Below, piece by piece: positions 1 through 912 of a stretch of 912 nucleotides of DNA. The translations under genes were made by a program, and so were the position numbers. The stretch is taken from the sequence record S81553.1. One strand, given 5' to 3'. Within the stretch, counting starts at the first letter, position 1. Every line of letters begins with the position of its first letter. The notes below the pieces were generated by a model. It had not been told where the DNA came from, made no database searches, and worked only from the letters and a program-made list of their open reading frames with translations. This DNA is from a phage.

Positions 1-30
1 GGGGGTAGGCCCCATAAGGGGCCTGCCTTC
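1..30 (+). promoter_or_regulatory. 5'-terminal stem-loop of an ssRNA phage genome (replication signal; its complement forms the 3' end of the minus strand)
   Basis: Seen in sequence: window starts GGGGG; positions 1-13 (GGGGGUAGGCCCC) pair with 18-30 (GGGGCCUGCCUUC) around an AUAA loop (14-17), giving 13 contiguous pairs including G-U wobbles at 3-28, 2-29 and 6-25. Established: the same architecture, G-run plus terminal hairpin, is found at the 5' end of Qbeta and MS2 genomes. Confidence 0.75.
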
Positions 31-41
31 AACGCACTACA

Positions 42-47
42 GAGGAG
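42..47 (+). promoter_or_regulatory. Shine-Dalgarno ribosome-binding site for the maturation gene
   Basis: GAGGAG at 42-47, 5 nt upstream of ATG at 53-55. Confidence 0.8.
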
Positions 48-52
48 AATCT

Positions 53-912
53 ATGCCAACCCTTCCGAGAGGACTTCGCTTCGGATCGAATGGCGAAATC
101 GTAAATGATTTCAACGCGCTCTGGTTTCCAGAGCGCGAAGCATTCGATCTCGAGCTCGGCTCCTACACACTCACTGGTTACGTAAGTAATCAGCCTGGCT
201 ATACGACGCGCATGCGTAATCCTCGCATGCATTGCGTTCGTACACCGCACAGAAGTACTGTACCTGTTAACCATTTTGGTTATAGGCCAGTTACGACTGT
301 TGAGTATGTTCCAAACGGAACTTTCATCCGCCTAGATGGGGATGTAAAGTTTTCCGGTGGATCGGTTAGTGGGTCGCTTAAGCTAAACAACTTCGTTGTT
401 AACTTAGCGTCACAGGGCGGCTTCGATTACCAGTCGGTAATCGGACCAAGGTTCTCGTCGCAATTCTCCGCGTTTAGTACCAAGTATGGTGCTTTGCTCG
501 GGGAAGGGAGAGAAACACTTAGTTATCTTCTCCTGCTGTTTCGCAGAATGCGTGAAGGGATCCGTGCCGTAAGGCGCGGTGATCTCAAGCGTCTCAGGAA
601 TCTGATACGTACATTCGAACCACGGTCCATTTCTGGCCGACGGCAACGAACGACGTTCTCAGAGACCTATCGCGATCGACTCGTCAACGACGGGTGGAAA
701 GACAGTAGTGCGAGTGACCTGTGGTTAGAGTTCCGATACGGACTGATGCCGTTGTTTTACGACATCAAGTCTGTAATGGAGGACTTCATGCGTATCCATA
801 AGAAGATCGCGAAATTACAGCGATTTTCAGCAGGACACGGTAAGCTTGTGACGGTTAAGGGTAGGTTCTTCCCTGACCCGCACTTCGCTATTGAGGTCAC
901 CGCGGTGTTACA
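53..912 (+). CDS. A2: Maturation protein A2 (pilus-binding/maturation protein, lysis effector in Qbeta-like phages); N-terminal 286 codons, truncated at the 3' window edge
   Basis: Seen in sequence: ATG at 53 with SD; frame 2 is open with no stop through codon 286 (ends 910; 911-912 are a partial codon). Translation MPTLPRGLRFGSNGEIVNDFNALWFPEREAFDLELGSYTLTGYVSNQPGYTTRMRNPRMHCVRTPHRSTVPVNHFGYRPVTTVEYVPNGTFIRLDGDVKFSGGSVSGSLKLNNFVVNLASQGGFDYQSVIGPRFSSQFSAFSTKYGALLGEGRETLSYLLLLFRRMREGIRAVRRGDLKRLRNLIRTFEPRSISGRRQRTTFSETYRDRLVNDGWKDSSASDLWLEFRYGLMPLFYDIKSVMEDFMRIHKKIAKLQRFSAGHGKLVTVKGRFFPDPHFAIEVTAVL. Established/recalled: Qbeta A2 begins MPKLPRGLRFGADNEILNDFQELWFPD and contains RTPHR, RPVTTV, FSAFNAKYG..GEG, LLLRRLREGYRAVKRGDL, LWLEFRYGLMPLFYDI and RFSVGHG in the same order. 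The MS2 A protein carries a related WLELQFGWLPLMSDI motif. Comparison is from memory, not a database search. Confidence 0.9.
   Translation, partial: MPTLPRGLRFGSNGEIVNDFNALWFPEREAFDLELGSYTLTGYVSNQPGYTTRMRNPRMHCVRTPHRSTVPVNHFGYRPVTTVEYVPNGTFIRLDGDVKFSGGSVSGSLKLNNFVVNLASQGGFDYQSVIGPRFSSQFSAFSTKYGALLGEGRETLSYLLLLFRRMREGIRAVRRGDLKRLRNLIRTFEPRSISGRRQRTTFSETYRDRLVNDGWKDSSASDLWLEFRYGLMPLFYDIKSVMEDFMRIHKKIAKLQRFSAGHGKLVTVKGRFFPDPHFAIEVTAVL

Follow-up and report, generated by a model that had tools for sequence, protein, structure and literature searches.

The 912-nucleotide stretch of DNA analyzed here (the window) almost certainly corresponds, on the grounds of sequence identity, to nucleotides 1-912 of the plus-strand genomic RNA of NL95, an F-pilus-specific single-stranded RNA (ssRNA) coliphage of Qubevirus faecium, and there is no counter-evidence to this identity. 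A megablast comparison with 50,697 phage records aligns the window on the plus strand to positions 1-912 of AF059243.1, with 912 of 912 bases matching (100.0%); this is the sole perfect match among those records, and a direct string comparison confirms that the window and bases 1-912 of AF059243.1 are the same. The record is entitled 'Bacteriophage NL95, complete genome', is linear and 4,248 nt long, and is classified as Riboviria; Leviviricetes; Norzivirales; Fiersviridae; Qubevirus; Qubevirus faecium. The initial annotation had read the window as the 5' end of a Qbeta-like ssRNA phage genome rather than as a cellular locus, and the full-length, same-strand match from base 1 to a complete Qubevirus genome bears this out. 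It had also listed SP, FI, NL95, M11 and MX1 as candidates, and the BLASTN check that it proposed singles out NL95, with 100% identity over 912 bases to the Qubevirus genome AF059243.1. The window is already known, AF059243 dating from 1998 in GenBank. PMC3561173 places NL95 among the group IV alloleviviruses, and its isolation source was a calf (PMC6963950).

The next-best records at the DNA level (megablast/BLASTN) are FI HB-P24 (86.8%), HB-P22 (81%), and SP, BR1 and FI records at 76-77%, all of them Qubevirus faecium. Because the window covers only 912 of the 4,248 nt, downstream differences would be invisible, and Qubevirus faecium is common in animal and sewage samples; the window might thus come from a near-identical but distinct isolate, a metagenomic contig or a cDNA clone that shares its first 912 nt with NL95. 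We regard this as very unlikely, since 912 of 912 positions agree without a mismatch, in an RNA phage that evolves fast and from which even the nearest sequenced relative departs at 13% of positions, and the match begins at base 1 of the record with an equal number of terminal Gs, whereas the FI records are one G shorter. Were such an isolate nonetheless the source, the biology would be unchanged.

The sequence is given in DNA letters, from which an RNA nature is unreadable, and it might be a cellular or plasmid DNA locus, such as an endogenized fragment or a cloning-vector insert, instead of the end of a viral RNA genome. The probability of this is negligible: megablast searches of 5,426 complete Escherichia coli genomes and of 72,556 plasmid records returned no match to the window, on which ground a cellular or plasmid origin was rejected, and the only records matched are complete ssRNA phage genomes, each starting within two bases of the same position. 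No tRNA or tmRNA is found in the window by ARAGORN and no Rfam family is matched on either strand at a permissive E-value threshold, so neither points to a cellular context; Rfam therefore has no model that recognizes this 5' region. The ssRNA nature of the source is indicated indirectly by the taxonomy of the record (Riboviria/Leviviricetes) and the lack of E. coli chromosome or plasmid matches, and a DNA-genome context, which would have spoken against the first reading, is not seen in those E. coli chromosomes and plasmids. Nor does anything appear to lie upstream of position 1, as had been anticipated, since the records of relatives open at most two bases away from the same G-run, and those of the Qubevirus faecium relatives at most one base away.

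The group comprising Qbeta, SP, FI, NL95, M11 and MX1 is among the best studied in molecular biology, and the window advances no open question. Its value is that of a calibration point: a levivirus terminus and maturation gene were recognized from raw letters alone, with the right phage among the candidates.

Genome plan and 5' terminus

The annotation of AF059243.1 gives the following genome plan, of which the window holds the first gene only:

53-1381, plus strand: A-protein, with the note 'minor coat protein; involved in particle maturation and bacterial lysis'
1402-1800, plus strand: major coat protein
1402-2394, plus strand: A1 protein, by read-through of the coat stop codon
2414-4144, plus strand: replicase

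The NL95 record thus shows the Qubevirus features of a linear genome of ~4.2 kb, the order A2 - coat - replicase, and an A1 extension. Coat, A1 and replicase genes downstream in a genome of about 4.2 kb had been predicted for the source of the window, and they are annotated in that order within the 4,248 nt. The 3' end, for which CCCA had been expected, reads ...CUCCUCCCA, i.e. ...CCUCCCA. No separate lysis gene is annotated in NL95, and a scan of the plus strand yields only short unannotated ORFs, none of them in the window.

The record has one peculiarity outside the window, at about 1110-1130, where an insertion of 1 nt near 1110 (after CAGA) and another of 2 nt near 1129 (about 18 nt later) make up an apparent compensated frameshift. 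At about residues 353-360 of the A-protein NL95 has TRPALSVN (TRPALSV) where all seven relatives have I-GQLYRH, and the +1 frame of NL95 reads GQLYR. This pair could be a real local feature or an error made when the 1998 record was sequenced, and is a possible legacy artefact.

The window starts GGGGGUAGGCCCCAUAAGGGGCCUGCCUUC, and two terminal features can be placed on it:

1-5, plus strand: 5'-terminal G-run GGGGG of the plus-strand genomic RNA, base 1 of the window being base 1 of the NL95 record
1-30, plus strand: 5'-terminal hairpin of 13 bp with loop AUAA at 14-17, folding at -27.2 kcal/mol

A genome-terminus G-run with a terminal hairpin had been noticed from the letters, and both are present. 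The hairpin arms, 1-13 with 18-30, match perfectly except for G-U pairs low in the stem (-27.2 kcal/mol when the first 34 nt are folded). The first 60 nt fold at -28.9 kcal/mol, compared with -17.1 +/- 2.9 for 200 dinucleotide shuffles (z = -4.0), and none of the 200 folds as well. A terminal hairpin likewise forms in the folds of FI, Qbeta, M11 and MX1, although their stem sequences differ, and at two pairs of a consensus fold the two clades are set apart by compensatory changes from GC to CG. A start of GGG(G)(G) and an end of ...CCCA are common to the eight Qubevirus genomes examined, and the Qubevirus terminal pattern (5' GGG..., 3' ...CCCA and a stable 5' hairpin) is found in NL95 and the relatives examined, except in the upper stem of SP. 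In the SP records X07489.1 and GQ153933.1, positions 10-15 on the 5' side of the hairpin read GGGGGG instead of the GCCCC of NL95 and FI, which leaves the upper stem unable to pair (MFE -16.1 vs -24 to -27 kcal/mol). One possible cause is a GC-compression artefact passed between records; the other is that SP truly has a different terminus.

Qbeta replicase initiates with GTP opposite the 3'-terminal C run, so that both strands start with Gs, and a stable terminal hairpin is thought to keep product and template single-stranded. By analogy with Qbeta, the GGG... 5' end of NL95 would mirror its ...CCCA 3' end through replicase initiation opposite the 3'-terminal C run, and the stable terminal hairpin would help to hold the product and template strands apart.

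The A protein

Most of the window belongs to a single coding sequence, within which one insertion stands out:

53-912, plus strand: A-protein (A2 homologue) coding sequence, codons 1-286 of 442, continuing to 1381; identified from the open frame, PF03863 and the Qbeta A2 structures
620-685, plus strand: 22-codon Arg-rich insertion, amino acids 190-211, PRSISGRRQRTTFSETYRDRLV, absent from the A2 proteins of Qbeta, M11 and MX1

Frame +2 has no stop over all 303 codons of the window, while the other five frames contain 10-21 stops each; under uniform codon use, a run of 303 codons free of stops would arise with a probability of ~5e-7. The long open frame had been likened to Qbeta A2, and its 286 codons, in the sole stop-free frame of the six, match the Qbeta A2 structures 5VLZ, 5VM7, 7LHD and 5MNT at E = 2e-62. 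Maturation-protein searches, which had been suggested for the 286-aa translation, are likewise positive: the partial protein scores 103.3 bits against PF03863 (Phage_mat-A; gathering cut-off 25, E = 1.8e-29) and matches PHROG 4286 at E = 7e-78. Residues 1-188 align to A2 residues 1-190 (E = 1e-43) and residues 212-268 to A2 192-248. The identity to Qbeta had been estimated at about half, close to the 45-46% found at the protein level: tblastn gives 45.1-45.4% over residues 1-269 for Qbeta strain records (and 40-42% over 1-264 for MX1 and M11 records), and the full-length NL95 A (442 aa) and Qbeta A2 (420 aa) proteins are 46% identical. At the DNA level only a 120-nt piece of Qbeta aligns with the window, at 71%, in keeping with the view of the initial annotation that this is a divergent relative and not Qbeta itself.

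'Head maturation protease' is the name given to the maturation protein by PHROG 4286 and by NC_001890.1, a RefSeq record with the label Qbeta. The name is misleading, since the levivirus A/A2 protein is a pilus- and RNA-binding protein, in Qbeta a MurA-blocking one, and no protease.

Every Qubevirus faecium isolate examined carries the Arg-rich insertion (31 aa in SP/BR1, 9 aa longer), which falls at the break between the two blocks that align to the solved Qbeta A2 structure. PMC12856241 describes Qbeta A2's N-terminal beta-region as binding the F-pilus and MurA, with interface residues 30-120 and a minimal lytic fragment of 1-180. The window encodes the counterpart of A2 residues 1 to ~266, and its product is homologous to both this MurA-binding beta-region (30-120) and the minimal lytic fragment (1-180).

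Functional statements for NL95 are inferred by transfer from Qbeta at 46% protein identity, and we found no NL95-specific experiment on mechanism in the searchable literature. The A protein would be present once per virion, its helical region binding the genomic RNA and its exposed beta-region the F-pilus, and it would cause lysis by blocking MurA. A lysis role is assigned to the A protein because these phages are without a separate lysis gene; NL95 has no annotated lysis gene and the window no plausible extra ORF, and the A protein is therefore presumed to be the lysis factor, as the note in the record says.

We also considered whether the window holds a lysis gene apart from A, or an ORF overlapping it, and rejected this, no candidate having been found. 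More broadly, a second functional element could be hidden beside the A gene, as an overlapping ORF or a minus-strand gene, and the minus strand does offer ORFs of 81 codons (29-274) and 78 codons (410-646). These come from a mechanical list and have no sign of being genes; we know of no translation of levivirus minus strands. Within the window, ORFs in the alternative frames of the plus strand do not exceed 28 codons, the NL95 record and all relatives annotate the A gene alone here, and no test gave positive evidence, which together make such an element extremely improbable.

Leader and predicted long-range RNA structure

Upstream of the A gene, and in part within it, the following features were placed; the helices are predictions from minimum free energy (MFE) folds:

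1-52, plus strand: 5' untranslated leader of 52 nt, the A-protein coding sequence being annotated from 53 in AF059243.1
42-47, plus strand: Shine-Dalgarno (SD) sequence GAGGAG (AGGAG at 43-47) with a 5-nt spacer to AUG-53, read from the sequence
42-52, plus strand: 5' arm of a predicted SD-sequestering long-range helix, partner 449-459
449-459, plus strand: 3' arm of the predicted SD-sequestering helix, in A-gene codons 133-136 (R-F-S-S)
33-40, plus strand: 5' arm of a second predicted long-range helix, CGCACUAC, partner 705-712
705-712, plus strand: 3' arm of the second predicted long-range helix, GUAGUGCG

The leader is near-identical among Qubevirus faecium isolates. It contains AGAGGAG at 41-47, of which AGGAG (43-47) is complementary to the 16S anti-SD, and none of the eight genomes departs from G45, A46 and G47. 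A short leader with a strong SD had been claimed, and in part this stands: the leader is 52 nt long, with AGGAG five bases before AUG-53. However, the SD is predicted to be paired in a long-range helix, and is thus strong in sequence but probably not in function.

Whether the window or the first 950 nt are folded, 42-43 pairs with 458-459 and 45-52 with 449-456, and the fold of the entire window is far more stable than those of shuffled sequences (z = -10.7). When the first 950 nt of the eight genomes are folded independently, the SD pairs in every one with homologous downstream codons (Pro-Arg-Phe/Tyr-Ser/Thr, aa 132-136). The partner segments overlap alignment columns 466-482 in both clades, Qbeta/M11/MX1 and NL95/SP/FI, and both arms of the helix differ in sequence between the two. 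Covariation in the SD helix occurs only between the clades, the five Qubevirus faecium leaders being identical over this segment. In MAFFT alignments the inter-clade indels put the leader and hairpin arms out of structural register, and we used per-genome folds and a short consensus fold because column-wise covariation counts would be meaningless.

A scan for isolated duplexes tempers this prediction. The best partner for the NL95 leader among downstream 25-mers is at -18.6 kcal/mol and does not lie at 449-459, and shuffled leaders reach -17.6 +/- 2.1; in Qbeta only is there a unique strong partner for the SD leader (-21.7 vs -13.5 kcal/mol). Because the NL95 duplex energy is no better than that of shuffled leaders, the SD helix was downgraded to a prediction.

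In the MFE folds of NL95 and of four further Qubevirus faecium genomes, a domain of ~670 nt is closed by the second predicted helix, 33-40/705-712. Its two arms do not vary within this clade, and it is hence without covariation.

Long-range occlusion of the maturation-gene start in Qbeta is reportedly the model of Beekwilder's 1996 thesis and paper and of Jacobson and Zuker in 1993. According to PMC2978339, the site at which translation of the Qbeta maturation gene begins is far weaker than that of the coat gene and is silenced by long-range structure. The occlusion of the NL95 SD by 449-459 is a prediction that is consistent with this Qbeta precedent. If it forms, translation of the A gene would be held low by pairing of the SD with a segment ~400 nt downstream, and ribosomes would gain access chiefly to RNA that is nascent or briefly unfolded, or at times when the coat site, the stronger of the two, is blocked.

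The Arg-rich insertion and the weaker SD helix raise the idea that the group IV phages might have a functionally different A protein (through an extra RNA contact, or an altered interaction with MurA or the pilus) or a different translational control of the A gene. We consider this unlikely; if true, it would refine known biology and not constitute a new kind of element.

Comparison with known phages

The window is identical to NL95 (AF059243.1) and co-linear with it from position 1, with the same A start at 53 and no difference within the window. Among the other group IV phages, FI HB-P24 and HB-P22, SP and BR1 have the genome plan, the leader and SD, the terminal hairpin and the basic insertion in common with NL95. 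Their A proteins are 72-88% identical to that of NL95 over the 286 residues in the window, with 76-87% identity of the DNA, and the insertion has a further 9-aa extension in SP and BR1.

The maturation protein of the MS2/GA-type phages (Emesvirus, groups I and II) belongs to the same Pfam family, Phage_mat-A, as NL95 A, but none of their proteins is among the tblastn matches at E <= 1e-5. PMC12856241 gives the MS2/GA-type maturation protein the same single-copy, pilus-binding and RNA-binding role in the virion, and describes these phages as having a separate lysis gene and no A1 read-through, their maturation protein not being the lysis factor.

Qbeta A2 (Qubevirus durum, group III; 5MNT, 5VLZ, 5VM7) is a whole-length homologue of NL95 A encoded at the same genome position. 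MurA inhibition and pilus binding have been demonstrated for Qbeta, whereas NL95 is known here from its sequence. The two proteins have an N-terminal MP-LPRGLRFG motif in common, and a LWLEFRYGL-PLF block is nearly invariant between them. They differ in length, 442 aa in NL95 vs 420 aa in Qbeta, with the 22-aa insertion following Qbeta residue 190, and the leaders are of 52 nt and 60 nt, respectively, with barely detectable similarity of the DNA. The predicted partner of the SD in Qbeta is the same downstream stretch of codons as in NL95, but the predicted helix of NL95, with 10 bp that include a G-U pair and a bulge, is much weaker than the 15-bp helix of Qbeta.
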